Positions 3,509 to 41,954 of a stretch of 64,000 nt of DNA are shown here, piece by piece (the first letter of the stretch is position 1; the number at the start of each line of letters is the position of its first letter). Under the pieces are notes generated by a model, which was not told the DNA's origin, searched no databases, and worked only from the letters and a program-made list of their open reading frames with translations. Source of the DNA: Mangrovicoccus sp. (GTDB lineage Bacteria > Pseudomonadota > Alphaproteobacteria > Rhodobacterales > Rhodobacteraceae); NCBI GenBank assembly GCA_049603835.1, contig JBMYSZ010000015.1, positions 19,576-83,575 on the forward strand, given 5' to 3'. The translations under genes were made by a program, and so were the position numbers.

Positions 3509-3753
3509 TCGCGCGCGCGGCGGTTGCGCTGCGCCTGTTGATTTGAATTTGGCTGGTTCCGGTATTGTGCCGGGGCCAGCCATCCGCGTCTTGGGCAGGG
3601 CCTCTGAAATGGGGTTTTGCCCAGGGTGCGGATTGGTCGAGCGGCCCTCTTCGGGAGGGGGGCCAAGGATGGACCAGACCCCCTGCTTTCGAGGCCCCGC
3701 CCGGCTGCCCCACCGGAGCGCGTGCCAGCGAAACATGAAAGGTGACAGCGCGC

Positions 3754-12430: not shown

Positions 12431-13078
12431 ATGCTTCAGTTGAGAAAGACACTCGCGCTAATTCTGATACTTGCAGCAGGGCAAGCATCGGCAAATTCGT
12501 GCAATGATAATCTAGAACGCATGATGCAAAATATGTGTGGGGATTTTGCGACGACAGCAGGGGGCCGCGCGGTTCAGCAAGTCGAGGCAGCGGTTCAGGC
12601 GAATTTCAGCAATGCGCTATTGCGCTTCATTGGTGCCGATGTGAGCGGGGGCGCGCAAGCCGCTTATGCAAATGCGCAAGACCGCTGGGAGGGTTACCCC
12701 CAGGATCAGATCCGGGCGATTCAAGAAGAGATCCGAGCTTGTAAGCTGCAAGCCGCGCAAATGTTTGCGGATCAGTTCTGCTCGACCGCGCCGAATACCA
12801 GCACCCCTGTTTCAAGCGCGCCGCAGCAAAGCCAGGCTGGCGCAGATTGGATCGCGGCGGTTATTCGGGATGATGACGGATATACCAATGTCCGCCAGGG
12901 ACCTAGCACTAGTTTTCCAATTGTGAGCCCGATCAATGACGGTACGATCTTTGCGGTGCAGCCCAGTGGCGAACGTTGGTGGAAAATCCGCTTTGCCTAT
13001 GCGCCGGAATATCGCCGTGCGCCCAGCGAGGTGATCGAAGGCTATATGCATGTCTCTCGCATCCAGGCTTTGCATTAA
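12431..13078 (+). CDS. Secreted hypothetical protein with a C-terminal bacterial SH3-like domain
   Basis: Signal peptide MLQLRKTLALILILAAGQASA. The C-terminal segment (YTNVRQGPSTSFPIVSPINDGTIFAV...WWKIRF) resembles SH3b. It is preceded by an AT-rich promoter-like region. Confidence 0.5.
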   Translation: MLQLRKTLALILILAAGQASANSCNDNLERMMQNMCGDFATTAGGRAVQQVEAAVQANFSNALLRFIGADVSGGAQAAYANAQDRWEGYPQDQIRAIQEEIRACKLQAAQMFADQFCSTAPNTSTPVSSAPQQSQAGADWIAAVIRDDDGYTNVRQGPSTSFPIVSPINDGTIFAVQPSGERWWKIRFAYAPEYRRAPSEVIEGYMHVSRIQALH

Positions 13079-19013: not shown

Positions 19014-19633
19014 TGAAAGCTCCTGTGATCAAATTGGATGCGGGCGAAGCTGGCGACATCGATCTGAACGAAGATGTTTTCGGCCTGGAACCGCGCGCTG
19101 ATATCTTGCATCGTGTTGTCCGCTGGCAGCGGTCGCGCATGCAGGCGGGCACTCACAAAGTGAAAACCCGTCGCGAGACCAGCTATTCCACCAAAAAGAT
19201 CGTTCGTCAGAAAGGCTCTGGCGGCGCACGTCACGGTGACCGGAATGCTCCGATCTTCCGTGGTGGTGGTATCTATAAAGGCCCGACCCCGCGGAGCCAC
19301 GCCCATGACTTGCCGAAGAAATTCCGCAAGCTCGGCCTGCGTCACGCTTTGTCGGCCAAGCAGGCTGCTGGTGAGCTGATCGTGATCGAAGAGGCGGTTT
19401 TGGCGGAAGCGAAAACCAAAGCTCTGTCCACCGCGGTGAAAAACCTCGGCTGGAAGCGCGCTCTGGTCATCGATGGTGCAGAAGTAAACGCAAATTTCGC
19501 AAAAGCAGCGGCGAATATCGAAGGTCTCGATATCCTGCCGAGCCAAGGTGCGAATGTTTATGACATCCTCAAGCGTGACACTCTGGTGCTCACCAAAGCA
19601 GGTGTCGAAGCGCTGGAGGCGCGCCTGAAATGA
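19013..19633 (+). CDS. rplD: 50S ribosomal protein L4
   Basis: 206 aa. Its start overlaps the rplC stop (TAATG). Confidence 0.95.
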
Positions 19634-19926
19634 GTGCAAAACCGGAGCATTACGACGTAATCCGTAAGCCGATCATCACCGAAAAAGCGACCATGGCCTC
19701 TGAAGCCAATGCGGTTGTTTTCGAAGTAGCGATCGACGCGGCGAAACCGCAGATCAAAGAAGCTGTTGAAGAGCTCTTTGGTGTGAAGGTGAAGGCGGTC
19801 AATACCACCATCACCAAAGGTAAGGTGAAGCGTTTCCGTGGCATGCTGGGCAAGCGTAAAGACGTTAAAAAAGCCTATGTGACCCTGGAAGAAGGCAACA
19901 CGATCGACGTATCGACCGGCCTTTAA
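19630..19926 (+). CDS. rplW: 50S ribosomal protein L23
   Basis: 98 aa. Its start overlaps the rplD stop (ATGA). Confidence 0.95.
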
Positions 19927-19937
19927 GCTTTGGCAGT

Positions 19938-19959
19938 GATGGGCAAATGCCCATCCTAC
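19938..19959. repeat. Single REP-like unit (GATGGGCAAATGCCCATCCTAC)
   Basis: Variant of the window-wide palindromic repeat, immediately 3' of rplW. Confidence 0.5.
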
Positions 19960-19970
19960 GCTTTTTGCAG

Positions 19971-19998
19971 CGCCTCCGCTTTTGCGGGGGCGTTTTGT
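19971..19998 (+). terminator. Terminator-like hairpin after rplW
   Basis: CGCCTCCGC-tttt-GCGGGGGCG followed by TTTTGTCT. Unexpected inside an S10 operon. Confidence 0.5.
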
Positions 19999-20125
19999 CT
20001 CATAAAGAGATTTCTTTGATTTTAGTGTATTCCTAATTTTGTGGAGCGTACATATTGGGGAGAAAGATCTCTAATTTGGACAAAGGGTTCTATTGAACCG
20101 AGCGCACGACGAAGGGAGGTAGACA

Positions 20126-20635
20126 ATGAACATCAATGCAGACCTCGCTGACCCCTCAGTACCAGTCTCCGATGCGTTGAACGTGGCTAATGAAATTCTG
20201 AAAATTGCAAAGCGCGAAGGTTTAGCTTTGACGCCTATGCAGTTAGTCAAGTTGACATATATCGCTCATGGATGGTCGCTTGCCATTCTCGAGCGTGATC
20301 TCTTTCAGGACCGGATTGAGGCTTGGAAATACGGTCCGGTTATTCCAGTGCTTTATCATGCTACAAAAAAATACGGTCGCGGAGTAATTCCTCTAGATTT
20401 AATAGATGAGGATACGCCGTCTCCCTTTGATGCCGATGTTACCGCATTGTTAGAAGATGTGGTGGCAAAATATGGGAACCTTAGCGGATACGCTTTGTCT
20501 AATTTAACGCACCGGGATGGAAGCCCATGGCAACAAGTGTTTAGGGAAGGTGTGATGAATATTCCCATAGGAGATGAAATTATCTCTCAGCACTATGGGG
20601 AGAAGCTCGATGCCTATAGACGTTCCACCTCCTGA
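20126..20635 (+). CDS. Panacea-domain (DUF4065 / COG3600 GepA-SocA-like) protein; putative PanA-type antitoxin or adaptor
   Basis: 169 aa. The strong SD GGGAGG lies 8 nt upstream. The segment ALNVANEILKIAKREGLALTPMQLVKLTYIAHGWSLAILERDLFQDRIEAWKYGPVIPVLYHATKKYG matches the conserved DUF4065 core (…ITNLKLQKLLYFAQGW…PLF.E.IEAW.YGPV.P.VY). Confidence 0.75.
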   Translation: MNINADLADPSVPVSDALNVANEILKIAKREGLALTPMQLVKLTYIAHGWSLAILERDLFQDRIEAWKYGPVIPVLYHATKKYGRGVIPLDLIDEDTPSPFDADVTALLEDVVAKYGNLSGYALSNLTHRDGSPWQQVFREGVMNIPIGDEIISQHYGEKLDAYRRSTS

Positions 20636-20960
20636 TGGTCCACTACCAGGACGTTGGGCGCAAGACGAAAGCGCTAGAAGAGAAAATCGCGACTGGGCGG
20701 ATGAAAGAAAATTAAGGGAAGCAAAGACATCGGCCGAGATTCTTTGGGCTAAATCCTACGGTTGGGCTATGATCGCGTTCCTAGCAGTGTTTTCGCTTCT
20801 TTTTTTGGGTAGTTTATCTGCCTGGTCACTTCATTACCTATTACCTGTCAAGTTTCATTGGTTGAGTTCTGATCAACTGTCAAAAGTTCAGTCTGTAATT
20901 TTTAGCGGAAGCCTTGGCGGTGTCGTGTCATTTGTTGCGCAAAAGCAATTGTCGAAATAG
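20610..20960 (+). CDS. Small single-pass membrane protein (toxin/effector candidate) overlapping the 3' end of the Panacea gene
   Basis: 116 aa from ATG 20610, with SD GGGGAGAAG 5 nt upstream. In-frame alternative starts lie at 20574 and 20595. It has a charged N-terminus, one hydrophobic helix (YGWAMIAFLAVFSLLFLGSLSAWSL) and a short C-terminal tail. The start overlaps the upstream stop by 26 nt. Confidence 0.55.
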   Translation: MPIDVPPPDGPLPGRWAQDESARRENRDWADERKLREAKTSAEILWAKSYGWAMIAFLAVFSLLFLGSLSAWSLHYLLPVKFHWLSSDQLSKVQSVIFSGSLGGVVSFVAQKQLSK

Positions 20961-21151
20961 CAAACCGCGTTCATAAAACTCCTAGACCCCCCTCTACCCA
21001 TCTGCTATTAGCGCCGGACCTAAACGGCCTCGGATTCGTTCCGGGGCCTTCTCTATTATAATTCGGGCACCTTCGGGGGCCTTTATTTGGGACCTGAGTC
21101 CGCGATCTCGCATCGCAAAAAAGGGCCCTCTAACAACGGAAGACAGAAACT

Positions 21152-21994
21152 ATGGCACTTAAGTCGTATAAACCGACGACGCCTGGCCAGCGTGGGCTGG
21201 TTCTGATCGACCGTTCGGAGCTTTGGAAAGGGCGCCCGGTCAAAAAACTCACTGAGGGTTTGACCAAATCGGGCGGTCGGAACAATACCGGACGGATCAC
21301 TTCTCGCCGTCGCGGCGGTGGCGCAAAACGCCTCTACCGTATCGTGGATTTCAAGCGTCGGAAATTCGATGTAGCGGCAACCGTCGAACGGATCGAATAT
21401 GACCCGAACCGGACCGCCTTTATCGCGCTGATCAAATATGACGATGGTGAGCAGGCCTATATCCTGGCACCGCAGCGTCTGGCGATTGGTGACAAAGTCA
21501 TCGCGGGCGCCAAAGCCGATATCAAGCCGGGCAATGCAATGCCGTTCTCCGGTCTGCCGATCGGGACCATCATTCACAATATCGAACTGAAGCCGGGCAA
21601 GGGCGGTCAAATCGCACGCGCTGCAGGCACTTACGCCCAGTTCGTTGGCCGTGATGGTGGCTATGCGCAGATCCGTCTGAGCTCGGGCGAGCTTCGCCTG
21701 GTCCGTCAGGAATGCATGGCAACTGTTGGCGCCGTGTCGAACCCGGATAATTCTAACCAAAACCTCGGTAAAGCTGGCCGTGTCCGTCACATGGGCAAAC
21801 GTCCGAGCGTTCGTGGTGTGGTTATGAACCCGATCGATCACCCCCATGGTGGTGGTGAAGGCCGGACTTCCGGTGGTCGTCACCCGGTTACCCCCTGGGG
21901 TAAGCCGACCAAAGGCGCGCGGACACGCGACACCAACAAAGCGTCGCAGAAGCTTATCATCCGCTCGCGTCACGCCAAGAAGAAGGGCCGCTAA
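21152..21994 (+). CDS. rplB: 50S ribosomal protein L2
   Basis: 280 aa. [17 protein letters not shown]... is a typical L2 N-terminus. Confidence 0.95.
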
Positions 21995-23824: not shown

Positions 23825-23836
23825 GCCTCTGCCAAT

Positions 23837-23942
23837 GATGGGCATATTGCCCATCCTACGAAATTGACCCCCGTCGTTACTTTAGCGGCGGGGGTTTTTT
23901 AATGTCGCGGATAGTGGGAGTAGGATGGGCATTTTGCCCATC
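23837..23942. repeat. Inverted pair of REP-like units bracketing a terminator
   Basis: GATGGGCATATTGCCCATCCTAC (23837-23859) and GTAGGATGGGCATTTTGCCCATC (23920-23942). Confidence 0.6.
23868..23900 (+). terminator. Rho-independent terminator immediately after rplP
   Basis: CCCCCGTCG-ttactttag-CGGCGGGGG followed by TTTTTT. Confidence 0.7.
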
Positions 23943-23987
23943 ATTGCCGTGAGATCGCGCGGCGGTTGATGCTCACCACGAAAAGCT

Positions 23988-24455
23988 TTAGCCGAGGCAG
24001 AGTGTGGTTTTCTGCGCCTGGCAGGCGGCGATCCGGTGCGGATAAGCGGCGCGATAGTCGTCTAGCTCAAACAGTGCCAATAGCGCTTCGGGATTTGGAT
24101 AGGTGCCAATCGCCACCAAATCCCAATCTTCTTCGCCGCCGATAAAGCTAGCTCCAAATGGCGCCACGAGCAAAAACCGGCCGCCAATTTTTTCGAGGCT
24201 CGGCATGCTCACCGCTGCATAGCGCTGGAACGCGTCTTGCCCCGAAACCGCCGCTGCATCCGCAGGATCACTCCCTGCAGGATAGGCTGCGATCCCTCGC
24301 ATTTTAAAGAAATTCACTAGGGTCACCGGCTGATCTTCGGGCAAGTCTATCAGCTCTGCCCAGGCGGCTTTATTGGGTAAGCCAACGCCCTCATCCCCCC
24401 ATTTGCCTAGGATAGCCTCAATACGTGCGGCGCGGTTTTGCGATGTCGAATTCAT
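23988..24455 (-). CDS. DUF1330-domain protein
   Basis: About 156 aa from MNSTSQNRAARIEAILG. Motifs PVTLVNFFKMRG...FQRYAAVSMPSLEKIGGRFL...EDWDLVAIGTYPNPEALLALFELDDYR fit the DUF1330 profile. The ORF-track N-extension is not supported. Confidence 0.55.
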   Translation of the reverse strand: MNSTSQNRAARIEAILGKWGDEGVGLPNKAAWAELIDLPEDQPVTLVNFFKMRGIAAYPAGSDPADAAAVSGQDAFQRYAAVSMPSLEKIGGRFLLVAPFGASFIGGEEDWDLVAIGTYPNPEALLALFELDDYRAAYPHRIAACQAQKTTLCLG

Positions 24456-24580
24456 GCGTCTCGTCTCCAAAAACTTCCGCCCCTCATGAGCGGTTGCGCA
24501 ACACCTATTGGCAAAGTACATATTCACAAGTAGGCAATTATTTTTGGGGTAGTACGCTTTTTGGTACTATTGGAGGCCGC

Positions 24581-24952
24581 ATGACCCAGCAAACCCAACA
24601 AAACCAGCCCGCCATTCCGGCAACTGCGGCCGGTATGTGTCAGCTGCCATGTCCCATGCCCGATATCGTTTCCCTGGTGGGCGGCAAATGGAAACTGATC
24701 ATCCTGCAAATTTTGGTCTTTGACGGCACGCAGCGTTTCGGTGAACTCAAGCGCCGCCTTGAGGGTGTCAGCCAAACCATGCTGACCAATCAGCTCCGTG
24801 GGTTAGAGGCAGATGGGCTGGTCTTCCGCAAGGTCTATGCCGAAGTGCCGCCGCGGGTCGAATATAGCGCCACGCCCTTGGCCCAGGATATGCAGCCGGT
24901 TTTCTTCGCCTTGCGCGATTGGTGGAAACGAAACCATCCTGAGCCGAAATAA
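24581..24952 (+). CDS. HxlR-family winged-helix transcriptional regulator
   Basis: About 123 aa from ATG 24581 (SD GGAGG at 24572). CPMPDIVSLVGGKWKLIILQIL...TQRFGELKRRLEGVSQTMLTNQLRGLEADGLV matches the HxlR fold. It is divergent from the DUF1330 gene. Confidence 0.7.
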   Translation: MTQQTQQNQPAIPATAAGMCQLPCPMPDIVSLVGGKWKLIILQILVFDGTQRFGELKRRLEGVSQTMLTNQLRGLEADGLVFRKVYAEVPPRVEYSATPLAQDMQPVFFALRDWWKRNHPEPK

Positions 24953-25060
24953 ATAAAGTAAGTTTCGAATTTAGCCATTAATGCCGCATTTCTCTTCACA
25001 TTGTTGGCGTGGTAATTGTTTTGACACCCCTCCGCGCTGCAGAAGAGAGCTCTGATTTCC

Positions 25061-26059
25061 ATGACAGTTTATGCGATTAATGGCCTTGGCCGCATGGGGA
25101 AGCTGATGCTGCGCCCCTTCCTAGAGCGCGGCGGTGAGCTGGCTTTTCTCAATGATCTGAACGCCACACCGGAGATGATCGCGCATCTGCTAGAATTCGA
25201 CACGATCCATGGTCGCTGGCCTGCGGAATTCGGTTTTGATGAAAACTCGATCCAGATTGATGGCCTGAAACTGCCGCTGCTCAATGAGGCGCGGATAGAA
25301 GATCTGCCACTTGACGGCGTCGATGTGGTGATCGATTGCACCGGCGTTTTCAAATCCGAAGCCAAGCTTGCCGCTTATTTCGCCGCCGGGGTGAAGAAGG
25401 TTGTGGTCTCCGCTCCGGTCAAAGACGGCCCCACGGCGAATATCGTCTATGGCGTCAATCAGCACATTTATGATCCGGCCGAACATCAGATCATCACTGC
25501 CGCAAGCTGCACAACCAATTGCATCGCGCCAGTGGTGAAGGTTCTGCATGAAGAGATCGGTATCAAACACGGCTCGATCACGACCATCCATGACGTGACC
25601 AATACGCAAACAATCGTGGATAAGCCCGCCAAAGATCTGCGCCGGGCGCGCTCTGCGATGAATTCCTTGATCCCTACCACCACCGGTTCGGCCACGGCGA
25701 TCACCTTGATCTATCCCGAGCTGACGGGGCGTCTGAATGGCCATGCGGTCCGGGTGCCTTTGCTCAATGCCTCGCTCACCGATTGCGTTTTCGAGATGGA
25801 GCGCGAAGTAACCGTCGAAGAGCTGAATGCCCGGTTCAAAGCGGCTGCAGAGGGGCCTTTGAAAGGGATCTTAGGATATGAAGAGCGACCGCTTGTTTCG
25901 GCGGATTACGTAAATGATCCGCGTTCGGGGATCGTCGATGGATTGTCCACAATGGTGGTCAATGGCACCCAAGCCAAGATCTATGTCTGGTATGATAACG
26001 AATGGGGCTATGTGTATCGCCTGGTCGATGTGGCGATGATGGTGGGGGAGGCGCTTTAA
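25061..26059 (+). CDS. gap: Type I glyceraldehyde-3-phosphate dehydrogenase-family protein (likely a second, accessory copy)
   Basis: 332 aa with a Rossmann N-terminus (INGLGRMGK), the catalytic SCTTNC motif and the C-terminal WYDNEWGY. Confidence 0.75.
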
Positions 26060-26110
26060 GCGCCGCCGCTCGGGTTTGGGCCAGGGGCCTCTAAGGGGCT
26101 AAGGGGGGTC

Positions 26111-27480
26111 TCAGGCCATTTGCGCCATGGATTGTGGGGCCGGGGCGCGCCGCCGCTCTGGCATGCGCCGTCTCTGCCGGGGCCGCGCTGTCCCCGCCGG
26201 GCTTGACCCGGCGGCTCTTTGCCCAGGGGTTTCGCTATAGCCTTCCGACAGGATCTGGGCAAAGACCCAATTCATTAGCGCCATGCCAGAAGCCGAAGCC
26301 AACACCAAAGGCAGGCCGCCAATATAATAGCTCAGCCCCGAAAGCAGCGTGCCAATCAAACGCCCCGCCGCATTGGACATATAGTAAAAGCCTACATCCA
26401 TGGCGGCGCGATCATCCTTGGTAAAGGCGAGGATGAGATAGGAATGCACCGAGGAATTCACCGCAAAGATCGCCCCAAAGATCAGCAGCCCCACCACCAG
26501 CACCGCAGTGAGCCAGCCCACCGGCCCGCCAGCGAGTAGCGCGGCAATGGTCAGCGCCACTGGCACAGTTACCAAAATCCCTGCCCAGCGGCGTGCCAAT
26601 TGGACAACGTCCTTTAGCTCTTTATCCTTAGCTTTCAGGAATTTCGGCGCATAGGCCTGCACCGCCCCATAGCCCACCAGCCATAGTGCCATAAAGGCGC
26701 CGATCATGAAAAAGGCCATGCGCATTCCTGGCACGGTGCCATCGCTTAGCACCTGATAGAAATAGGCGGGGATCCCGACCACAAACCAGGCATCGCGCGC
26801 GCCAAAGAGGAAAACTCGGGCGGCGGAGAGAATATTGATATTGCGATCCTTGGAAAAGACCTCTTGGAATTTCGCCGATTTTCGCCCAGTGGGCAGACCG
26901 CGCGGCATAAAGCTAAAGACCAGGCTCAACACCACGGCGAGGGCCACGGCCATGGAAAGCGTCGCCCCGGTAAAACCCAAAAGCGCCAGCAGAGCAGCGC
27001 CAAGCAAAAAGCCCAGCCCCTTCACCGCATTCTTTGAGCCGGTCAGCGCGGCGACCCATTTGAACAGCGCGCCTTTCTCTTCCTTTGGTGCCAGCAATTT
27101 CACCGCGCTTTTAGAGCTCATCTTGGTGAGGTCTTTCGCAACCCCGGCGCAGCCCTGCACCACCATCACAAAAGCGACGGAGGCCCAAAGCGCCCAAGCC
27201 GGGTTGAGCTGGGCCAGGGCAAGCAGAGCGCCGATTTGCAGCACAAGCCCCGCATAAAGCGTGACCGTCAGGCCAAACCGCGCGGCGAGCCATCCCGCGG
27301 TCAGATTGGTCACCATGCCCATGAATTCATAGAGTAAGAACATGAAAGCCAGCTGCACCGGGCTGAAGCCCAAAGTCTCAAAATGTAGCAGCACCAGCAT
27401 GCGCAAAGCGCCATCGGTGAGCATAAAAGCCCAATAGGCCGCCGTCACGGCAATATAAGCGGCAACAGGATTATGGTCGC
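26111..27480 (-). CDS. MFS transporter (true start uncertain)
   Basis: The C-terminal ~430 aa of the 657-aa ORF (from ...NPVAAYIAVTAAYWAFMLTDGALRMLVLLHF) form a 12-TM MFS-like core. The Ser/Arg/Pro-rich N-terminal extension is unlikely to be translated; the real start is probably a GTG or TTG near 27,400-27,500. Confidence 0.5.
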
Positions 27481-28209
27481 CGCGTCCATGCAGACGATCT
27501 TTCAGCGATGATTTTTGCGGCTGCGTGCTGGTCGCGCCTTCGCCCTTATTCGATAGGAAAGACAGCTTATCCGCGAAGGGGTTGGCCGGGCCGAAGCCGA
27601 ATTTTGCGGCGCTAGAAAGAGCGGCAAGGCCGAGACATAGCCCAATAAAGGCCAGGCCTGCTTGCTGCACCGAGGTGGAAAAAATGGCGACGGTTGAGAT
27701 GCCAAAAGCCACAACCGTCGTCCAAAGCGCGGAGCTTGTCCAAAAGCTGCTGCTTGTCTTTGCTTCGGCTCCCGCATCAGGCTTTGGCGTCCAGACTAGG
27801 GGAGGGAAGGCATAGCTCCGGCCATTCTTTGTCGCGTCCAGGCTACGCCAGCTGGGGCGCAATTTCGTGCGCGGCTTGGGGCGATCGACCGAGATTGTCC
27901 GCCCTTTGAGCTCGTGCAGCGACACAGAGGACTGACGCGAAGCTGTCGATGCGGCGGGCCTTGTCTGGGTAGGTTCGGGCACCTGCTTGCGATAGCGCTT
28001 TGGCGGGACACGGCGAGACATTTTTGAGGCGGCGCGAGATGCAGACATAGGGGAACTTCGAAAATCGTGATCAATTCGCCCCAATTTAGCCCGATAACTT
28101 TCGAAATGACTACTATTATATCCCGAATATTTTGCAGATCTTGGCAGATTGCGGCGGGAATGTTACCTAGCGCCAATGCGAATGCGGAGCTTTGAGGTAG
28201 CAAGCGGTA

Positions 28210-29529
28210 GTGTCTTCAGCGTCTTCAGTGGCTGCGGTTTGGCCAGCGAAAGAAATTTGGCTTTTGGCCCTGCGCGGCGGCGCTTCGGTGCTCAATGGCA
28301 TTTTGGCGGCCCTCGCTTTGCGGGCCTTCCCCGATCTTGATGCTATCGCCCGGCTTTCGCCTATTTTTATTCTTTTTGTAGCCATCGCACTGCTCACCGA
28401 TAGCAATCTGCGAGAGATGCTGCATGGGCATGTGGTGCTGGATTGGGTTAATCGCCGCTATGACGCTCTCCGGGCGGAAATTTCCCAGGCGCCCAAAGGG
28501 ATTGCCGCGCTTCGGGCGGTCAATTCTGGGGATCCCGTGGCGCTGACGGGCCATGTGGCGCTGGCGCTCAATAGTGTCTTTGCGATTTTAGCAGTGCTGG
28601 CGGGGCTCGCGATTTTATCGCGGGCGGCCTTTATTTTGCATCTGCTGGCCGTGGCGGTGATTGCGGCGATTTTATTTGTGGCATGGCTGGAAAAGGGCTT
28701 TGCCGCGCGGCTATCGGCTTGGCCGCATCTGCTGCCGAGCTTGGCTCTGGTCACGACGATCTTGCAGGTTTTCTTGCTGCCCGCGCTTTTGCCTGGCACC
28801 TCGACCGAGATTTTGGCCGGTTGTGCGATCCTTTCCCTGGCCATGGCTTTGCCGATCACGCGGATTGCCGATTTGCCCGAAAGCTTTGCGCTTCTGCGCG
28901 ATTTGCACCAACTGCCCCAGGGGGGGGACGATACGGAAACTCAGCCACCGCCACCGCCGCTTGGTTTTTCGGTCGATGGGCAAAGCTTTGGCGCGGGGGA
29001 TTGCCTGGTGATCCATTGCCGAACTGCGGTGCAGCAGCGTCAGATTATGCGTGGTTTTTCCGGGTCAGAGCCTTTGCCCAGCCATGTCGCCCAAGATCTT
29101 GGAGCCCAGGATAGCGCCATGGACGTGGCGCGGATTGCCCAGCAAACAGCCCCGGTTTTCGCCGATCCTATGCCATTCGTGCCGCCCATCACCGCAAGCG
29201 CTGCGCCGATTGCCTTGGGTCCGCTTGCCCATGCTTTGGAGTTGCCCGAAGATATCCTGACTTGGCCCGGCGGCTTTTTGCATCTGGAGGATGCTGTGCC
29301 AGGACCGGGGCTATTGGGCGCTATTTGCGATCCGCGTCCAGTGATCTTAGCGGAAATGCCAAAACGCTTTTTCGGGCCCACAGAGGCGGTGAAACGTCGG
29401 GCTTTGCTGGCAGCGGCGGCGAAATCCGGCAAGGTGCTGATCTGTGTCACCCATGGCGCCGCGCCGCCCGAGCCTAAGGGGGCGAAATTTTTGCTCATCG
29501 ATCTCACCCAAAAGGCCGCCCAGCCATGA
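28210..29529 (+). CDS. Hypothetical protein: N-terminal multi-TM domain plus a C-terminal soluble domain with degenerate ABC-NBD-like remnants
   Basis: 439 aa with a hydrophobic N-terminal half. The C-terminal half shows faint ABC-ATPase-like strings (GDCLVIHCRT..., KRRALLAAAAKSGKVLICVTH) but no Walker A motif. Its stop overlaps the next start (ATGA). Confidence 0.4.
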   Translation: MSSASSVAAVWPAKEIWLLALRGGASVLNGILAALALRAFPDLDAIARLSPIFILFVAIALLTDSNLREMLHGHVVLDWVNRRYDALRAEISQAPKGIAALRAVNSGDPVALTGHVALALNSVFAILAVLAGLAILSRAAFILHLLAVAVIAAILFVAWLEKGFAARLSAWPHLLPSLALVTTILQVFLLPALLPGTSTEILAGCAILSLAMALPITRIADLPESFALLRDLHQLPQGGDDTETQPPPPPLGFSVDGQSFGAGDCLVIHCRTAVQQRQIMRGFSGSEPLPSHVAQDLGAQDSAMDVARIAQQTAPVFADPMPFVPPITASAAPIALGPLAHALELPEDILTWPGGFLHLEDAVPGPGLLGAICDPRPVILAEMPKRFFGPTEAVKRRALLAAAAKSGKVLICVTHGAAPPEPKGAKFLLIDLTQKAAQP

Positions 29530-30374
29530 GCCCGCTTTTCCTGCTTTGGCGCATGATCACCGCCCAGCCGCGTATCGGGATCGTTTTGATCTTTCTGTCC
29601 ATCGCGGCGGCTCAGGTGCATGCCACGCTGCTTTTGCTGATCGTGACGAAAATCGCTGGGCTGCTCGACTTGGCTGACCGCTCTGTCACGCTTTGGATGC
29701 CGCTGCTCACGGGGCTCGCCAGCGTCGCGCTAGAAATCTTTGCGGGCTATTTCTCGCGGGTGTTTGCGACGGATCTGGAAGAAAAGCTCGACTTGCCCAA
29801 ACCGATCCTAGAAGAGCATTGCCGCTTGTTGCGCATCGCCTGCGCTTTGGCCTCGATCCTAGTGATGCTGTTTGTGTTCAATTGGGGACTGTTTTTGGCG
29901 GGAACTGTTTTACTGGCCTCGCTTTTGCGGGCGCTTTGGCGCGCAACGAATGAAAGCAAACCTGCCATGGAAGAGCAAAGGCGCGCGCAAGCGGTGATCG
30001 ATGAGAGCCTAGCGCAAATCGCCCAAAGCCCCGATACGGTGCGGGCCTATCCCGAAGCTGTGCGCGACATGCTGGGGCAAAGCATACGGGCCGATTTCAT
30101 CGCCGAGGGCCAGCGCGTACATGCGGCCAGCAAAGCCGGGGGGCGGCTGGGCTTCTGGTCGTTATTTCGCTGGTATATCGTGGTCTTTGCGGCGCTTTTC
30201 CTGTTGCCGCAATATGGGCTGAGCCCTCCAACTGTGCTGATCCTTTTGGCCTATCAATTGGTGTTGCTGGATCAATTCTCTAGCCTTTATCTCGCCCAAG
30301 CGCGGCGGATTGAGGCAGGGTCGCCAATGGAGCAAGAGATTTGGCAAGAAGTTGAGACATTCTTTGTTCGCTGA
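29526..30374 (+). CDS. ABC exporter transmembrane-domain-like protein (MsbA-like N-terminal TMD, no ATPase domain)
   Basis: 282 aa. DRSVTLWMPLLTGLASVALEIFAGYFSRVF closely resembles the MsbA TMD segment DRSVLVWMPLVVIGLMILRGITSYVSSY. Translationally coupled to the upstream ORF. Confidence 0.5.
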   Translation: MSPLFLLWRMITAQPRIGIVLIFLSIAAAQVHATLLLLIVTKIAGLLDLADRSVTLWMPLLTGLASVALEIFAGYFSRVFATDLEEKLDLPKPILEEHCRLLRIACALASILVMLFVFNWGLFLAGTVLLASLLRALWRATNESKPAMEEQRRAQAVIDESLAQIAQSPDTVRAYPEAVRDMLGQSIRADFIAEGQRVHAASKAGGRLGFWSLFRWYIVVFAALFLLPQYGLSPPTVLILLAYQLVLLDQFSSLYLAQARRIEAGSPMEQEIWQEVETFFVR

Positions 30375-30490
30375 TTGATTTTTAGCTAGCCTTAGGTCAA
30401 TGATTTGTTGAAAAGCGCTTTGTTGATCCTCTGGCATCATACAAAGTGCAGGGGCCATGAGGGCCCGATCTGATTTGGGCCAGACTTAAG

Positions 30491-31204
30491 GTGATTTCTA
30501 TGGCACGAACCACAAAGACGACCGGCACAAATGCTGACGAGACCGCAACCGACAAGGTTGAAGCGGTAAGCTCCGAAACCGAGGCCGAAGCTACAACCAG
30601 CGACGCGGCAAGCGCGGATGACAGCAAGGATGTTGTGGCTATGGACACCGCCGAGAGCGCGGAAGAGGCCAGCAGCGACGACATGGTTGAGCTGCCCTCG
30701 CAGGTTGAGATCGATAATCTGATCAAAGGCTATGTCATTGCCTCTATGGCCTCTGCGGCGATTCCGGTTCCGCCTGCCGATACGGCGGCGATCATCGCGA
30801 CCCAGGTGAAAATGATCCATGGCCTGGCCAAGCTTTATGATGTGCCATTCACCCGTGGCATCGCGCAAAATCTGGTTGTTTCGCTGATCGGCGGTGTTGC
30901 GCCTTTGGCGGTGACTATGGGCGTTGCGAGCCTGGCGAAAACCGTACCGGTGATCGGCACTTTTGGTGGCATGTCGGGCATGGTGATTTTGGCGGGCGCC
31001 TCTACTTATGCAACCGGCCAAGTTCTGGTGCATCACTTTGAGAATGGCGGCACTTTGGTGAATCTGGACACGGCGAAAATCCGCGAGGAATATCGCAATC
31101 AGCTGCGCAAAGGCAAAGAGCTGACCCGCCGTCTACGCGGCAAATCTGCCGAAGCGACCGCAGCAGAGAGCGTTAGTGCTGAGGGCGAGGCCCAGCCCGC
31201 CTAA
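30491..31204 (+). CDS. DUF697-like membrane-associated protein with an acidic low-complexity N-terminus
   Basis: 237 aa. The central region (KGYVIASMASAAIPVPPADTAAIIATQVKMIHGLAKLYDVPF...LIGGVAPLA) resembles the DUF697/YcjF C-terminal domain. Confidence 0.4.
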   Translation: MISMARTTKTTGTNADETATDKVEAVSSETEAEATTSDAASADDSKDVVAMDTAESAEEASSDDMVELPSQVEIDNLIKGYVIASMASAAIPVPPADTAAIIATQVKMIHGLAKLYDVPFTRGIAQNLVVSLIGGVAPLAVTMGVASLAKTVPVIGTFGGMSGMVILAGASTYATGQVLVHHFENGGTLVNLDTAKIREEYRNQLRKGKELTRRLRGKSAEATAAESVSAEGEAQPA

Positions 31205-31231
31205 TCCCGCCCTTTTGCGGAAGTTATCGTT

Positions 31232-32770
31232 TTGCGTGTGACCAAAGAAGATGTGAGCCCTCGGCGGAAGAAACCTGCTCCGCCGAGCTCTTGGCGCGAG
31301 CGACTGCATCGGATAGGGCGCGCCTTTAGCCGGATCTCTTTGGCGGTGGTGGTTCTCTTTTTGCTGCTGCTGGCTGCGATTTATCCGGCGGTGGTGCGGG
31401 TCGTCCCTGCCGGTGCGGCGGGGGTGATTTATAAGCCCCTGCGCGGCGGGACAGTGACAGACCGGATCTTTGGTGAAGGGGTCCATGTCAAATATCCTTG
31501 GGATACGCTTTACGTCTATAATACCCGGATCCAAACGATCCTGCATGATTTCACGGTTCTGACCAATAAGGGCCTGCCGGTCACGCTGCGCCTGGCGATC
31601 CGGTTTCATCCCGAGCGCGAGATGATCGGGCGGCTGCATAAGCAGGTTGGTCCGAATTACGCCGAGACGATTATTGTCTATCAGATCGAGTCTGTGCTCA
31701 GGAAACGTCTGGGCAAGGAAGACCCCGAAGACATTTACACCAATCGCTCGGGCACGCTGACGGATGTCTTCGAAAATGCGATTGAGGAAGTGGGCCAGCG
31801 CTATGTGCGCATCACTGATGTGATCATCCGCGAAATCGTGTTGCCAAGCCAGGTTGTGGCAGCAATCGAGGAAAAGCTGGTGCATCAGCAAAAGCTTGAA
31901 GCCTATGAGTTCCGCTTAGAAACCCAAGCCCGCGAGGCAGAGCGGATGCGGATCGAAGCGGCGGGGATCCGCGATTATCAAGCAACCATCAATGAAACCC
32001 TGAGCAAAGATCTGATCGTTTGGCAGGGGGTGAATGCAACGGTTGAGTTGGCGCAATCGGATAATGCCAAAATCGTGGTGGTCGGCTCGGGCGATAAGGG
32101 GCTGCCGGTGATTTTGGGCGCGGATAGTTTTGCCACTGGCCCAGAGGGGACGGGTGGCGGAGCGGGCTTGGCTGGCCCCGGCGCGGCGGTGGCCGCAAAT
32201 GCGGCGTCTGCGCCTGCGCCTGCGCCTGCGGAGCCCGGCGGAGCTGGGGCTATGGTGATGTCTCCCGATTTGCGTCTCTCCAGCGCCGCGCTTCCCCCGA
32301 TGCAAGAGCAAGTCCAAAGTCCGGTATCAGAGCCGGTGCCGCAGCAATCGCCCCGCCCTGGTCTAGAGCCGCTGCCGCAGCTTTGGGCCTTTTTGCCGCC
32401 CTTCCTGCAACCCAAAGAGGGGCCCGTGCCAAGCCAAGATCCAGCCGCGCCGCGCGCTGCACATGAGGCGGTGCCCTATGTCAGCGCGGCCGAGCAAACC
32501 GGCGCGACAGCTGCGGCGGGCGTCAACTCATACGGGCCGATGCGCCGCTATTCGCCTCTTGCGGGTGAAGCCATGCCGCCCTTTGTGTCGATCTTCCAGC
32601 GCCGCTATTCCCTGCCGCTCGATCCGGTCTTTGATCCGCATGCGCAAAATGGCAGCCCCGTCGCCGGGCGTTTGGGGCCAACCAGTCAGCACACAGCGCG
32701 GGCGCAGATTGGCAAACGCGGCTTGATTGCGGCGGAATTCCTGCAAAATCCATCTGATATTCTGCCATGA
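31232..32770 (+). CDS. SPFH/band-7 (prohibitin/HflC-like) domain protein with a long Pro/Ala-rich C-terminal tail
   Basis: An N-terminal TM helix followed by an SPFH core (VVRVVPAGAAGVIYKPLRGGTVTDRIFGEGVHVKYPWDTLYVYNTRIQT...). The C-terminal ~200 aa are low complexity. Confidence 0.6.
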   Translation: MRVTKEDVSPRRKKPAPPSSWRERLHRIGRAFSRISLAVVVLFLLLLAAIYPAVVRVVPAGAAGVIYKPLRGGTVTDRIFGEGVHVKYPWDTLYVYNTRIQTILHDFTVLTNKGLPVTLRLAIRFHPEREMIGRLHKQVGPNYAETIIVYQIESVLRKRLGKEDPEDIYTNRSGTLTDVFENAIEEVGQRYVRITDVIIREIVLPSQVVAAIEEKLVHQQKLEAYEFRLETQAREAERMRIEAAGIRDYQATINETLSKDLIVWQGVNATVELAQSDNAKIVVVGSGDKGLPVILGADSFATGPEGTGGGAGLAGPGAAVAANAASAPAPAPAEPGGAGAMVMSPDLRLSSAALPPMQEQVQSPVSEPVPQQSPRPGLEPLPQLWAFLPPFLQPKEGPVPSQDPAAPRAAHEAVPYVSAAEQTGATAAAGVNSYGPMRRYSPLAGEAMPPFVSIFQRRYSLPLDPVFDPHAQNGSPVAGRLGPTSQHTARAQIGKRGLIAAEFLQNPSDILP

Positions 32771-33978
32771 GACGGCTGCGCTATATTGCATCCGTGCTGG
32801 TGATCGCGGTGATGGTGCAAATTTCGGGGCTCGTGGATCTGGGCCTGCGTCTTGGCTCGCAAAGCCTGACCCTGCCGCGGCTGCCCGAGCCGGATTTCCC
32901 TGAGCCCGGCGAGAGCTGGATGATTGGCGTCTATTATTACGAGGCTCTGCATCCCGGATTTCTTGCGGGCGCAGAGCTGGCCGAGGCGGAGATCAATGCC
33001 AAGGGCGGCATTTTGGGACGCCCCATCAAGATCAAGGCGGTGGATGAAGCTGGGTTTTCGGAACGTGCCGAAGAGCGCAATCTAGCCGCCCGGCGCCATT
33101 TCGATCATGATCGAGTTTTGGCGGTGATGGGCGGGTCGTCAGATCTGATTATTCGTAATGCCTCGGATTGGTTTGACGATCTTGGGATCCTCTATTTCAA
33201 TCCGCTCTTTCCGCTGTCCAATGTGGGCAATCCAGGCAAGCCCTATGTCTTTGCCACGATCCCCGATCGCGAGCGGATCGGCGATAACCTGGCCCAAGCC
33301 ATGAGCGAAATGGGGGCAACGCGCATCGCGATTGTGGCAAGTCGGGAGCGGGCCGCGCAAGAGATCCGGCATTCGATCCAAGATATTGCCCCGAGCCTGG
33401 CTTTAGACGTGGTGGCGGATCTGGGTATGGCAGGGGCGGATGCCAGTTATATCGACGAGCTGGTTCGCCTCAGCTCGGCCCAGCCCGAGGCGATTGCGCT
33501 TTTGCTGCCCAAAGCCGAACGCGAGGTGTTTTTGCGCCAAGCCGCTCGGATGAAGCTGAATGCGCCGATTTTCTTAGGCCATCCGGAGGGGATCGTGCCA
33601 TGGGCCGAGGATTTCGCGGGGCTCACCGCAACGGAATGGCCAGAACTGGAACTGTGGCAGGCGGAACCGCTGGAAAATCCACGCGCCGATAGGGCCGGGC
33701 TGTCACGCTTTCAAACCAGCTATCAGAGCCGCTTTGATCAAGCTCCGAGCTATTGGGCCGCCCAAGGATATGATACTTTGCGGATGATCGCGCAGGTGGC
33801 GGAAGAGATTGGGTCGGATCACCCGCTCCAGATTGCCACGGCGCTGAATACGCAAACCGCCTGGACAGGCATTACCGGCCCGCATTCTTTCACCAATTCG
33901 GGTCGGATCTATACGAAGGACTGGCCTTATGGGCCGCTGCGCCTCACAGATTTGGCGCGTAACACTCTAAGCCATTGA
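32767..33978 (+). CDS. Periplasmic substrate-binding protein, LivK/branched-chain amino acid-binding (type 1 PBP) family
   Basis: 403 aa with an N-terminal signal anchor. WMIGVYYYEALHPGFLAGAELAEAEINAKGGILGRPIKIKAVDEAG is typical of Leu/Ile/Val-binding proteins. Its start overlaps the SPFH stop (ATGA). Confidence 0.55.
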   Translation: MRRLRYIASVLVIAVMVQISGLVDLGLRLGSQSLTLPRLPEPDFPEPGESWMIGVYYYEALHPGFLAGAELAEAEINAKGGILGRPIKIKAVDEAGFSERAEERNLAARRHFDHDRVLAVMGGSSDLIIRNASDWFDDLGILYFNPLFPLSNVGNPGKPYVFATIPDRERIGDNLAQAMSEMGATRIAIVASRERAAQEIRHSIQDIAPSLALDVVADLGMAGADASYIDELVRLSSAQPEAIALLLPKAEREVFLRQAARMKLNAPIFLGHPEGIVPWAEDFAGLTATEWPELELWQAEPLENPRADRAGLSRFQTSYQSRFDQAPSYWAAQGYDTLRMIAQVAEEIGSDHPLQIATALNTQTAWTGITGPHSFTNSGRIYTKDWPYGPLRLTDLARNTLSH

Positions 33979-33987
33979 GAGGCAGCT

Positions 33988-34173
33988 ATGATCATCGTCA
34001 AAGCGCATATGATGCCAGCAATTTTGATCTATCTTAGCATTTGCGGGGTGATCGGGCTGATGGGGCGGCGCAGAAAGCTGGGGGGCTGGGCGTATTTCTT
34101 TGCCTCGATCTGCCTGACGCCGTTGATTGGCTTTCTGCTCATCTCCGCATCGGATCCGCGTCCGCGATGGTGA
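33988..34173 (+). CDS. Small two-TM membrane protein (PLDc_N-like)
   Basis: 61 aa with AGAGG 7 nt upstream. GWAYFFASICLTPLIGFLLISAS resembles the PLD-nuclease N-terminal small membrane domain. Its stop overlaps the next ATG (ATGGTGA). Confidence 0.35.
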   Translation: MIIVKAHMMPAILIYLSICGVIGLMGRRRKLGGWAYFFASICLTPLIGFLLISASDPRPRW

Positions 34174-34961
34174 GAGCCTGGGCTTTTGGCGCGGCGCTTT
34201 TGGCAAGCCTGCCAGGTGCGGCATTGACGGAGACCCGGCGCGATCATGTGAAGCTGGCAGTGCCTTTCGCGCTGTTGCCTTATGCCCAGGCCGAGGCGAG
34301 CGCCTTTGCGGCAGAGCATCCGTTTAAGTTTCCCGAACTGCTTTCAGCGCGGGATTCGGCTATGCCATGGCTTTTTTGCCGGGGCGGGGTTTCTGATAGC
34401 CCGGATATGGGCCTGGCTTTTGCGCCGCTAAGCGCAGAGATTTCGGAGCTTTGCGCGACTTTTGGCAAAACCGATCTGACCCAGATGGCGGGCGGGGGGA
34501 TGCAGCTTTCGGCTTTTGCTCTGACCTCGCGTGATTTGGCGGGGATCGATTTGGCTGAGCTTGATTTGGCAGAGCTGAGCGCGGGGGATCTGTCTTGGCA
34601 GGATCTGCGGAGCGATCTGCCCGATGCGCCTTTGCGCTTTTATTTGCCAGGGGATGCGGCGCGGCTGGCTTTTGCTCAGGCCTTAGCAGAGCAATGTTCG
34701 CAGGAGGAGGGCTGCGCCTTTGAGCAAAGCCTGGCCAGCTATGAAAGCTTGCGCCGCCCGGAGGATCTGGATCCGAATGGGATCTATTTTATACCCGGCT
34801 CGGGCGCGGTGCAGCTGATCGGCTGGAGCCAGCTAGAGATCCAGCCTCAGATCGAGTTGCCGCTATATCTTTGGCTCAGAACCGAGCGGATTGAGACAGT
34901 AATTGGGGCAAAGCCGGCTGTGAAAGCATTGGCCCTTTGCGGCGGTGACAGTGCCTGTTGA
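34167..34961 (+). CDS. Hypothetical secreted protein
   Basis: Signal peptide MVRAWAFGAALLASLPGAALT, translationally coupled to the upstream small ORF. No recognisable domain, and the sequence is Asp/Leu-repetitive. Confidence 0.3.
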   Translation: MVRAWAFGAALLASLPGAALTETRRDHVKLAVPFALLPYAQAEASAFAAEHPFKFPELLSARDSAMPWLFCRGGVSDSPDMGLAFAPLSAEISELCATFGKTDLTQMAGGGMQLSAFALTSRDLAGIDLAELDLAELSAGDLSWQDLRSDLPDAPLRFYLPGDAARLAFAQALAEQCSQEEGCAFEQSLASYESLRRPEDLDPNGIYFIPGSGAVQLIGWSQLEIQPQIELPLYLWLRTERIETVIGAKPAVKALALCGGDSAC

Positions 34962-34969
34962 GCCCGAGC

Positions 34970-34992
34970 GGTGGGCCAATTGCCCACCCTAC
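34970..34992. repeat. Single REP-like unit (GGTGGGCCAATTGCCCACCCTAC)
   Basis: Near-perfect copy of the consensus palindrome. Confidence 0.5.
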
Positions 34993-35058
34993 ATTGCCTT
35001 CGCCATTAGCTCTGCTTGCGGCAGGCCTTAAACTTTGGGATAGGGGCCTCGCCTGGTT

Positions 35059-35700
35059 TTGCCCATAGGAGGTCCATCAATGGCCGAGATTGAATCGCTT
35101 TTTGTCACCCGCCTTTACCGCGCAGCTTTAACGGAATTCGGCGATACAATCGATCCGCAAGAGCTAGAGGCGTCTTGCTTTTCTATCGCCGAGGATGATG
35201 AGGCGGGCCAAGACTGGTGCGAGGAGAATGGCTATCCCGGCTATACGTCTTATGCCTCGCTCACGGATTTGCCCTGGCGCTTTCCAATTTTCGCCGATGT
35301 GGTGGCGGCGCTTGATAAACATGTGGCCGAATTTGCCAAGGATCTGGAATTCAATCTTGATGGCCGCGACTTGAAGCTCGAAGATCTGTGGATCAATATT
35401 CTGCCCGAAGGCGGTATGCATAGCTCGCATCTGCACCCGCATTCGGTGATCTCTGGTACGACTTACGTGTCTATGCCGAAAGGCACCAGCGCGCTGAAAC
35501 TGGAAGATCCGCGCTCGGGCCGGATGATGGCCGCGCCGGCCCGGATCAAAGACGCCCGGCGGGAGCTGCGGACCTTTGTCTATGCAGAGCCAAAGGCTGG
35601 CGATGTGCTGCTTTGGGAAAGCTGGCTGCGCCATGAAGTGCCGATGAATATGGCGGAAGAAGAGCGGGTCAGCGTCAGTTTCAACTACGCTTGGGCTTAA
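35059..35700 (+). CDS. TIGR02466-family putative 2OG-Fe(II) oxygenase-like protein
   Basis: 213 aa. LFVTRLYRA... at the N-terminus, with HLHPHSVISGTTYVSMP...WLRHEV...VSFNYAW matching the conserved family architecture. Confidence 0.55.
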   Translation: MPIGGPSMAEIESLFVTRLYRAALTEFGDTIDPQELEASCFSIAEDDEAGQDWCEENGYPGYTSYASLTDLPWRFPIFADVVAALDKHVAEFAKDLEFNLDGRDLKLEDLWINILPEGGMHSSHLHPHSVISGTTYVSMPKGTSALKLEDPRSGRMMAAPARIKDARRELRTFVYAEPKAGDVLLWESWLRHEVPMNMAEEERVSVSFNYAWA

Positions 35701-36298
35701 CGGGCACCCGCTTTGCCACTTCGCTGACTGTGGAATGGGCCAGATCGCTGGCCATGACCACAAAGATCAGCAAGGTCGATCCGGCAAAGGCAACGGTCAG
35801 GTTCAGATTTGCGGTCAGGCTAAGCCAATCCGTGTCGACTTTTGGCGATACGCTTTGGAACAGGCAAGAAAAGGTCGCATAGCCTAGGATAAGGTGGCGT
35901 ATGGCCCAGGTTTGCTTGCTTCGGGGCAGAACCGAGCGGCACAGCATATATGCCAGCGCTAAGGCCGATTGCACACAGAAATACAGCACCGGATGTGCGC
36001 GGGGCGCGTCGTCAAAGGCAAAGAAATGCCAGGGAAAGGCAAGGGCGCATCCCAGCGGGAAGAAGAGCAATACGAGGGTGGTCAGTTGTTTGCGGGTGGC
36101 ACAGATCTGGGCCGAGCGGGCGACAGCGGCGATGCCATGGATCCAACCGCCGATCCCCACAAAGGCCATGGCGACCGCAAACAGGCCCGCACCTTTATAG
36201 ACCACCGCCATGCGCGAGGCGAGATTGAGAAAGCCCATGACCGAGAAGGTGGTCAGGACCCATTTCGTATCTGGGCGAGATATCAGCTGCTGCAACAT
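35681..36298 (-). CDS. Hypothetical polytopic membrane protein
   Basis: 205 aa, hydrophobic throughout. Convergent with the TIGR02466 gene. Confidence 0.35.
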   Translation of the reverse strand: MLQQLISRPDTKWVLTTFSVMGFLNLASRMAVVYKGAGLFAVAMAFVGIGGWIHGIAAVARSAQICATRKQLTTLVLLFFPLGCALAFPWHFFAFDDAPRAHPVLYFCVQSALALAYMLCRSVLPRSKQTWAIRHLILGYATFSCLFQSVSPKVDTDWLSLTANLNLTVAFAGSTLLIFVVMASDLAHSTVSEVAKRVPVKPKRS

Positions 36299-36387
36299 GG
36301 CCGCTCTGGTGCCTCAGTCGGGCGTCGGTTACAAGGCTACAGAGCGCGCAGAGCCGCTTGACTGAATGGGAAAAGCTAGTGCGGTGC

Positions 36388-36446
36388 GATGGGCAAATTG
36401 CCCATCCTACATTTGGGCGGCGAGTAGGGTGGGCAATTTGCCCACC
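36388..36446. repeat. Inverted pair of REP-like units upstream of rpmC
   Basis: GATGGGCAAATTGCCCATCCTAC (36388-36410) and GTAGGGTGGGCAATTTGCCCACC (36424-36446). Confidence 0.6.
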
Positions 36447-36595
36447 AATCTCTGTAATGCGGCCGATTTTCCTTGTCATCGGCCTGTCACTCTCCTATAG
36501 GGGCCGCTCATCCACTACCTCCATCGGAATCAGGGTGACCCGCCGCGGATGCGGAATAGGGGCCTTCCGGTGACGTTGAACAAAGGAATAAGGCT

Positions 36596-40978: not shown

Positions 40979-41076
40979 TTGTGGGTCGGATTGGTTGTGG
41001 GGGGCCGTTCCGACCTATCGCCTATTGACCAATCCTCAAGCTGCAAGCCAGCTTAGGCGCATATGGGGGAAGAGAA

Positions 41077-41878: not shown

Positions 41879-41954
<76 letters not shown>

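Follow-up and report, generated by a model that had tools for sequence, protein, structure and literature searches.

In this study, we describe two overlapping open reading frames, ORF1 and ORF2, that lie between the ribosomal-protein genes rplW and rplB in a window of 64,000 nucleotides from Mangrovicoccus sp. (Rhodobacteraceae; GenBank assembly GCA_049603835.1, contig JBMYSZ010000015.1, positions 19,576 to 83,575 of the forward strand; the window is the whole stretch analysed, and positions count from its first letter), and we conclude that together they very probably make up a type II toxin-antitoxin (TA) cassette of the PanA-PanT kind, two genes long and acquired by horizontal transfer. 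ORF1 encodes a Panacea-domain protein, the candidate antitoxin, and ORF2 a small predicted membrane protein that, by profile comparison, shows remote homology to the PanT T12/D11 cluster. The genes in this part of the window run in the order tuf, rpsJ, rplC, rplD, rplW, ORF1, ORF2, rplB, rpsS, rplV, rpsC, rplP, and the features that matter to the argument are the following.

19630..19926, + strand: rplW (L23), which closes the upstream ribosomal-protein unit and forms the left border of the gap; PF00276 in the Logan gene call
19969..19999, + strand: intrinsic terminator 3' of rplW, consisting of a G+C-rich stem of 11 bp and a downstream U-run
19998..20125, + strand: AT-rich cassette leader, 40% GC (0.398), carrying the Shine-Dalgarno (SD) site GGGAGG
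19998-20982, + strand: cargo (approximate extent), panA and the panT-like gene
20126..20635, + strand: panA (ORF1), candidate stand-alone Panacea-domain antitoxin of 169 amino acids; ATG-to-stop reading frame, PF13274
20610..20960, + strand: panT-like gene (ORF2), predicted membrane protein of 116 amino acids; SD site GGGGAG at 20596-20601, 8 nt 5' of the ATG
20983..21010, + strand: rplB promoter-like block, a sequence motif only (-35 TAGACC at 20983-20988, 16-nt C-rich spacer, -10 CTATTA at 21005-21010), delimiting the cargo on the right
21026..21048, + strand: hairpin 1 (GGCCTCGG-ATTCG-TTCCGGGGCC), conserved and native to the rplB leader region
21065..21149, + strand: L2-Alphaproteobacteria ribosomal protein leader, RF03142 (cmscan 48.1 bits against a gathering cutoff of 37.8, full model 1-66)
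21152..21994, + strand: rplB (L2), which opens the downstream ribosomal-protein unit

The cassette differs in composition from its surroundings. The GC content is 0.453 in positions 20001-21000 against 0.55-0.58 on both sides (45% for the cassette against 56% for the host-gene background), and GC at third codon positions (GC3) is 0.44 in ORF1 and 0.385 in ORF2 against 0.61-0.66 in rplW, rplB and tuf. In a blastn comparison with the other Mangrovicoccus metagenome-assembled genome (MAG), locus L028, homology ends at 19924, at the rplW stop, and restarts at 21025; that genome carries different cargo at the rplW-rplB site. On account of the compositional contrast and the broken homology, acquisition of the cassette as foreign DNA by horizontal transfer is supported, as a preliminary description of this stretch had proposed from codon and GC contrast. 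The strong SD site that it had noted is likewise present (GGGAGG at 20113-20118, 7 nt 5' of the ORF1 ATG).

The Panacea protein and its overlapping partner

The preliminary description had assigned ORF1 to the Panacea/DUF4065 family, quoting a peptide that corresponds to residues 35-84, and the assignment is borne out. PF13274 (SocA_Panacea) is the single Pfam family found by hmmscan, with an E-value of 2.9e-18 and 67.3 bits against a gathering cutoff of 25.7 bits, far beyond chance, and the whole profile (positions 1-113 of 113) aligns to residues 40-136. Every one of 598 homologs from a protein database search carries PF13274, the closest being 71% identical, and ORF1 falls into phrog_1281 (E 2e-38), a PHROGs family of unknown function. 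The domain call is not new, since it is already in the public annotation, where NCBI names the protein of the Mangrovicoccus MAG "Panacea domain-containing protein". As there are no additional N- or C-terminal domains, ORF1 is a stand-alone Panacea protein. An AlphaFold2 (AF2) model from 40 relatives (pLDDT 93.6, pTM 0.87) has seven helices and two short strands, in agreement with the alpha1-alpha7 and beta1-beta2 architecture described for the domain (Ernits et al., 2023; PMC10440598); a search of the PDB gave no significant match by sequence or by fold (Foldseek). Among the 40 relatives the motif W67-K-Y69-G70-P71-V72 and H129 are conserved, with Y69, G70, P71 and H129 invariant and V72 nearly so. 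The GPV motif was mutated experimentally in the PanA of V. harveyi (Kurata et al., 2022; PMC8832971), and substitution of Y56 and H120 abolishes neutralization in the Bartonella PanA (PMC10440598). In the AF2 model Y69 stands just ahead of strand 2 and H129 closes helix 5; by position, rather than by direct alignment, these two residues are probably equivalent to Bartonella Y56 and H120.

The start of ORF2 lies 26 nt inside the 3' end of ORF1. A longer version with its start at 20574 (128 amino acids, as given in the list of open reading frames) was rejected in favor of the ATG at 20610, because the N-termini of homologs align there, the SD site GGGGAG precedes it and an independent gene call begins at the same codon. 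The N-terminal portion of about 44 residues is charged and proline-rich (8 K/R and 10 D/E in the first 44 amino acids) and is followed by a predicted transmembrane (TM) helix at approximately residues 50-76 (Kyte-Doolittle peak 2.2, top window 53-71) and by a Gly/Ser-rich C-terminal helix; the AF2 helices span residues 32-77 and 87-115. A word-indexed search returned only nine proteins, the window's own among them, and an exhaustive profile search at E<=1e-3 returned 661 cluster representatives, of which nearly all of the best 150 listed are 110-135 amino acids long. In phage and plasmid collections tblastn with ORF2 found no match, and the family is visible there only through profiles. The N-terminal motif PPP...W...A..E is invariant in the family, which would fit a conserved binding surface.

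As the preliminary description had anticipated, it is the partner that defines the type of system, and the neighborhoods of homologs hold a conserved one. An ORF2-family gene lies directly 3' of a PF13274 gene in 10/10 contexts opened (the window, four reached through ORF2 homologs, four through the closest PanA homologs and one IMG/VR contig), the two genes overlapping by 14-29 nt or standing 2 nt apart, and the neighboring genes are unrelated among the ten. In one context reached through the closest PanA homologs the partner gene had not been called and was detected by a six-frame hmmsearch; in the IMG/VR contig, which is phage-like, the pair adjoins a gene whose product, judged by eye, resembles an S24-type (LexA/CI-type) repressor. 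Such strict linkage amid unrelated surroundings is the signature of a mobile two-gene module. The identical order rplD-rplW-ORF1-ORF2-rplB is found in Logan contig SRR27204692, from a run that may represent the sample behind the MAG itself. In Jannaschia formosa and Sulfitobacter (L094, L096/L097, 3783-4001) a conserved Lys/Arg-rich reading frame of 72 amino acids (MPKGPQGQRRPAD...) abuts the start of PanA; the window lacks it, and no Pfam match is on record for it.

The experimentally characterized systems closest to this pair are those of the T12 cluster. Kurata et al. (2022; PMC8832971) report three validated membrane-targeting PanTs and show by experiment that the T12 PanT of B. apis is a membrane toxin neutralized by PanA and that PanAT pairs act via complex formation; the T12 gene order is A|T, and the overlaps in the supplementary table include -14 and -26 nt. 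T12 corresponds to the PanT D11:PanA pair of Bartonella choladocola/apis in Ernits et al. (2023; PMC10440598), in which, according to a model and mutagenesis, the stand-alone Panacea domain neutralizes directly by contacting the unstructured N-terminal region of the toxin and a short helix before the TM segment. The T12 reference in our comparisons was YP_003344835.1 of Aggregatibacter phage S1249, which is listed as T12 and is not the Bartonella protein. Against it, the ORF2 profile reaches an hhalign probability of 96.0% (E 3.8e-9), and a profile from about 150 representatives scores 73.5 bits (E 6.7e-24). In Pseudomonas temperate phages, the gene 3' of a PanA that is 53% identical to ORF1 is homologous to the ORF2 family. 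Membership in a second cluster, T3, was rejected (hhalign probability 0.3%, hmmsearch E 0.18). The T3 reference was the annotated PanA/PanT pair of E. coli phage PhiR47_1, taken as T3 from its matching +22-nt spacing; in this system (E. coli STEC O31 / phage PhiR47_1) a PanA 36% identical to ORF1 is likewise followed by a membrane-spanning toxin, but the toxin has 182 amino acids. From these profile comparisons, positive for T12 and negative for T3, ORF1 and ORF2 are therefore taken to be a PanA-PanT pair of the T12 (D11) type.

The resemblance to T12/D11 extends to the organization of both proteins and both genes. It includes a stand-alone Panacea antitoxin encoded 5' of, and overlapping, a toxin of about 115 amino acids; the A|T order with short overlaps; a charged N-terminus and a C-terminal TM region in the toxin, as in ORF2; the motif H..P..WH.L...QL..I, common to both; and the positional match of ORF1 Y69 and H129 to the functionally tested Y56 and H120. 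The ORF2 subfamily differs in two conserved features peculiar to it, a PPP-W N-terminus and an FSGSLGG C-terminal helix.

With respect to Caulobacter SocA-SocB, a type VI TA system, the preliminary description had called ORF1 SocA-like. This holds for the Panacea/DUF4065 domain, which is common to both, and not for orthology: SocA_antitoxin (NF047745) is the best NCBIfam match of ORF1 (E 6.5e-27), but at 94.3 bits it stays below the equivalog cutoff of 190 bits, so ORF1 is not a SocA ortholog. A SocAB-like mode of action, in which the Panacea protein would be a ClpXP adaptor that degrades its toxin, could draw on that same best match and on the "SocA" in the name of PF13274, and we consider it extremely unlikely. 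The partner is another one, a membrane protein of 116 amino acids that is of T12 type, has no NCBIfam match and is set apart, by description, from the replication inhibitor SocB; and the complex formation shown for PanAT pairs (PMC8832971) speaks for binding where a protease adaptor is proposed for SocA. The ORF1-ORF2 pair is a further member of the known type II PanAT systems and is not SocAB.

The same data could also be read without any toxin, ORF2 being a harmless membrane protein (for example a prophage-derived superinfection-exclusion or holin-like factor) that the Panacea protein regulates or chaperones. Relatives in prophage-like settings near repressor genes would suit such a reading, as would the fact that no described toxin model matches ORF2 directly and that a large number of predicted PanAT pairs did not pass validation or lacked toxicity in E. 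coli (PMC8832971; PMC10440598). We nevertheless regard it as unlikely, given that the representative of the T12 cluster, to which ORF2 is homologous, is toxic and is neutralized by PanA, and that type II TA modules typically show just this strict pairing of two genes with overlapping frames.

The gap between rplW and rplB in Rhodobacteraceae

The site that holds the cassette was compared using the L23 locus from 80 related Rhodobacteraceae species genomes (loci L011-L090), in 56 of which rplB was found by tblastn. The gap measures 93-181 bp in 15 genomes and 265-2861 bp in 41, exceeds 3 kb in 21 (L2 lying outside the fetched flank) and runs into a contig edge in the other 3. The rplW-rplB gap is thus hypervariable in length. 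At empty sites the rplW stop is followed after about 18 nt by the hairpin GGCCCCGG-ATTCG-CCGGGGCC, by a second structured element and then by AACGGAAGACAGAAAGC-ATG. At filled sites the conserved hairpin is always at the rplB side, mostly 103-216 nt 5' of rplB where the pattern search found it. A promoter-like block (TTGAC/TAGAC, 16-17 nt, CTAnAn) occupies a fixed position 5' of hairpin 1 at 39 of 42 filled sites in the printed alignment, these being the sites, the window included, where hairpin 1 was found; 26 of the 39 satisfy the strict pattern T[TA]G[AC]C-N16/17-[CT]TAnnn, 12-15 nt before hairpin 1. It is by this locus comparison alone, not by a sigma-70 scan, that the block before rplB was recognized. 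Of 64 sites that are filled or open, the window among them, 55 have a strong canonical terminator after rplW, 46-73 nt from the rplW stop with two exceptions at 131 and 156 nt; the 55 are the window and 54 related loci.

The window agrees with this layout, running from rplW through the terminator, the cargo, the rplB promoter-like block, the hairpin and the L2 leader to rplB. Its terminator region (19927-20005) folds at -39.7 kcal/mol (z = -5.4), and a terminator scan matches at 19977-19992; a SmY match at 19920-19993 (21.6 bits, cutoff 39) was dismissed as chance. No terminator of the cassette's own was found between ORF2 and the rplB promoter block. Since one border carries a terminator and the other a promoter-like block, the cassette does not split a transcription unit, and the initial view that it interrupts an operon was revised: in filled-site genomes the site lies between two transcription units.

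Cargo reading frames are mostly singletons in an all-against-all BLAST and are unrelated between species, and none of those in the related loci is similar to ORF1 or ORF2 by the same comparison. A family scan of the cargo proteins brought out unambiguous defense systems made of one gene, as follows.

SoFic: L028, the other Mangrovicoccus MAG (E 2e-95)
AbiP2 reverse transcriptase, full length: L075 (E 3.7e-188)
AbiP2 reverse transcriptase, fragmentary: L063 (E 1e-127)
AbiU/AIPR: L059, Ruegeria (E 8e-186)
OLD-family nuclease: L036 (E 6e-37)
Schlafen/AlbA_2 protein: L052
STAND-like NTPases: L053, L089
PD-T4-6-type kinases, two: gap cargo

The largest cargo cluster is an uncharacterized protein of 180-240 amino acids present in eight loci (L028, L056, L059, L063, L069, L048, L071, L073), at 2282-2881 in L028 and at about 3262-3926 in L056, L059, L063 and L069; in these five it is the first gene after rplW. 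Where the gene that follows it was identified, it differs from locus to locus, being SoFic in L028, AbiU in L059, an AbiP2 fragment in L063 and a gene for a fatty-acid-desaturase-family protein in L069. The one member scanned, that of L028, had no Pfam or PADLOC match.

Defense hotspots flanked by core genes have been described in E. coli and Pseudomonas pan-genomes. The rplW-rplB gap resembles them in its fixed position between core genes, its varying content and its enrichment in small defense systems, and it looks like an integrase-free defense hotspot. It differs from them in lying inside the ribosomal-protein supercluster, in being bounded by a terminator and by the rplB promoter-like block with the L2 leader, in the very small size of its cargo (0.3 to 2.9 kb in closed gaps, more than 3 kb in 21 more loci) and in the lack of an adjoining integrase or tRNA. 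Neither integrase, transposase nor tRNA was found in or beside the gap, and direct or inverted repeats flanking the window cassette are only short and at chance level, with no target-site repeats; transposition and site-specific integration were rejected on these grounds. Cargo is probably exchanged by homologous recombination on the highly conserved flanks, and one may speculate that gene transfer agents, with their 4-5 kb fragments, act as carriers. Five loci (L017, L028, L038, L082, L011) have a second hairpin of the GGCCCCGG...CCGGGGCC type near the rplW side besides the copy before rplB, which hints that recombination or duplication there takes part in the exchange. We found no description of an rplW-rplB hotspot in the literature searched; a similar variable region at another junction, rpmD|rplO, has been reported in roseobacters (Christie-Oleza et al., 2012; PMC3305630).

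Proposed action and role of the cassette

It seems that PanA and PanT would act here much as in the Bartonella pair. ORF2 would belong to the PanT T12/D11 family and be a small toxin of the inner membrane, with a cytoplasmic charged N-terminus that precedes the TM helix. By homology to Bartonella, the Panacea core of PanA, around Y69 and H129, would bind the N-terminal cytoplasmic segment of PanT so that the membrane is spared, and when PanA is lost or displaced, PanT would depolarize or permeabilize the membrane and growth would stop. Thus ORF2 may be toxic by membrane damage, and ORF1 may neutralize it by binding its N-terminal region, both by analogy with the characterized pair. The 26-nt overlap suggests translational coupling of ORF1 and ORF2, and antitoxin would then be made ahead of toxin.

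With regard to its role, since single-gene anti-phage systems are frequent in this spacer, a turnover hotspot in related Rhodobacteraceae, the cassette would most likely serve abortive-infection-type defense and/or selfish addiction. Several observations weigh against this interpretation of the cassette, in part or as a whole. To our knowledge, no phage-defense phenotype has been reported for T12-type PanAT. PanAT is not among the systems in PADLOC, where neither ORF1 nor ORF2 has a match, so that no known defense-system label applies to them; ORF2 in addition matches no Pfam or NCBIfam model. The link between ORF2 and T12 is remote, at 17% identity in the hhalign alignment, and toxicity was demonstrated by experiment for T12/D11, whereas the ORF2 subfamily is known from sequence alone. 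The hotspot also carries non-defense cargo (desaturases, redoxins, MarR, DUF2200, transporters), and for this reason location alone is no proof of a defense role. Finally, a sigma-70 consensus scan of 19500-21400 gave zero matches, so that no cassette promoter was recognized; a promoter is presumed to lie within the leader, 19998..20125. The independent expression claimed in the preliminary description is thus plausible as far as the rplW terminator and the good SD site of ORF1 go, and it finds no backing in a consensus promoter before ORF1.

The lack of a detected promoter would also suit a cassette that is no longer active and persists passively, as a remnant, in a spacer prone to recombination, and degraded cargo does occur elsewhere at the site, for example the AbiP2 fragments in L063. 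This is very unlikely for the window cassette: ORF1 and ORF2 are full length with respect to their families, both have SD sites and keep all family-invariant residues, and the geometry of their overlap is as in relatives.

It is conceivable, too, that the spacer is a lineage-wide, integrase-free defense hotspot of the Roseobacter group that lies beside the most strongly transcribed operons and whose cargo is coupled to ribosomal-protein transcription. The labile antitoxin would then come from transcripts reading through from the S10 unit, and phage-induced or stringent shut-off of ribosomal-protein transcription would free the membrane toxin. We consider this broader proposal improbable as it stands, and we retain the plainer interpretation of a horizontally acquired PanA-PanT cassette.

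Neighboring features and significance

The ribosomal-protein cluster of the window is broken at other junctions as well. About 12.7 kb of non-ribosomal genes (23825-36595) lie between rplP and rpmC, among them genes for a DUF1330 protein, a GAPDH-like protein, an SPFH/Band 7 protein, a periplasmic binding protein and a 2OG-Fe(II) oxygenase, so that the S10/spc cluster is interrupted there too. After rpmD, no rplO or secY reading frame is evident by eye, no homology search having been made, in the + strand list over the remaining 23 kb (40920-64000). This region, the rpmD|rplO junction that is variable in roseobacters (Christie-Oleza et al., 2012; PMC3305630), opens with a VWA-domain protein gene at 40995-41792 and a lower-GC stretch with three tRNA genes. 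Further features of the window are these.

41882-41954, - strand; 43173-43244, - strand; 44473-44546, + strand: tRNA genes after rpmD
1285-2157: Acyl_transf_3 membrane protein, between rplA and rplJ
12431-13078: small protein between rpoC and rpsL with an SH3_3 match just below the Pfam cutoff (26.1 against 27 bits) and, by eye, a signal-peptide-like N-terminus
3634-3722, + strand: Rhodo-rpoB RNA, RF03074 (49.6 bits against a gathering cutoff of 33.6), upstream of rpoB

Taken by itself, the ORF1-ORF2 pair is one more PanAT module. It brings with it a sizeable unannotated subfamily of T12-like candidate membrane toxins (661 cluster representatives, no Pfam model), which could enter TA and defense annotation. 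The more interesting result is the genomic setting, that is, the rplW-rplB spacer as a compact hotspot for defense and accessory genes. In Rhodobacteraceae, the canonical S10 operon appears to be interrupted by a terminator behind rplW and to resume with the promoter-like block, the hairpin and the L2 leader. The setting invites the question by what route small cassettes enter and leave such a site without integrases. Moreover, a hotspot so compact and so sharply bounded could be used for discovery, as the unidentified genes that it holds in hundreds of marine genomes are candidate defense systems.

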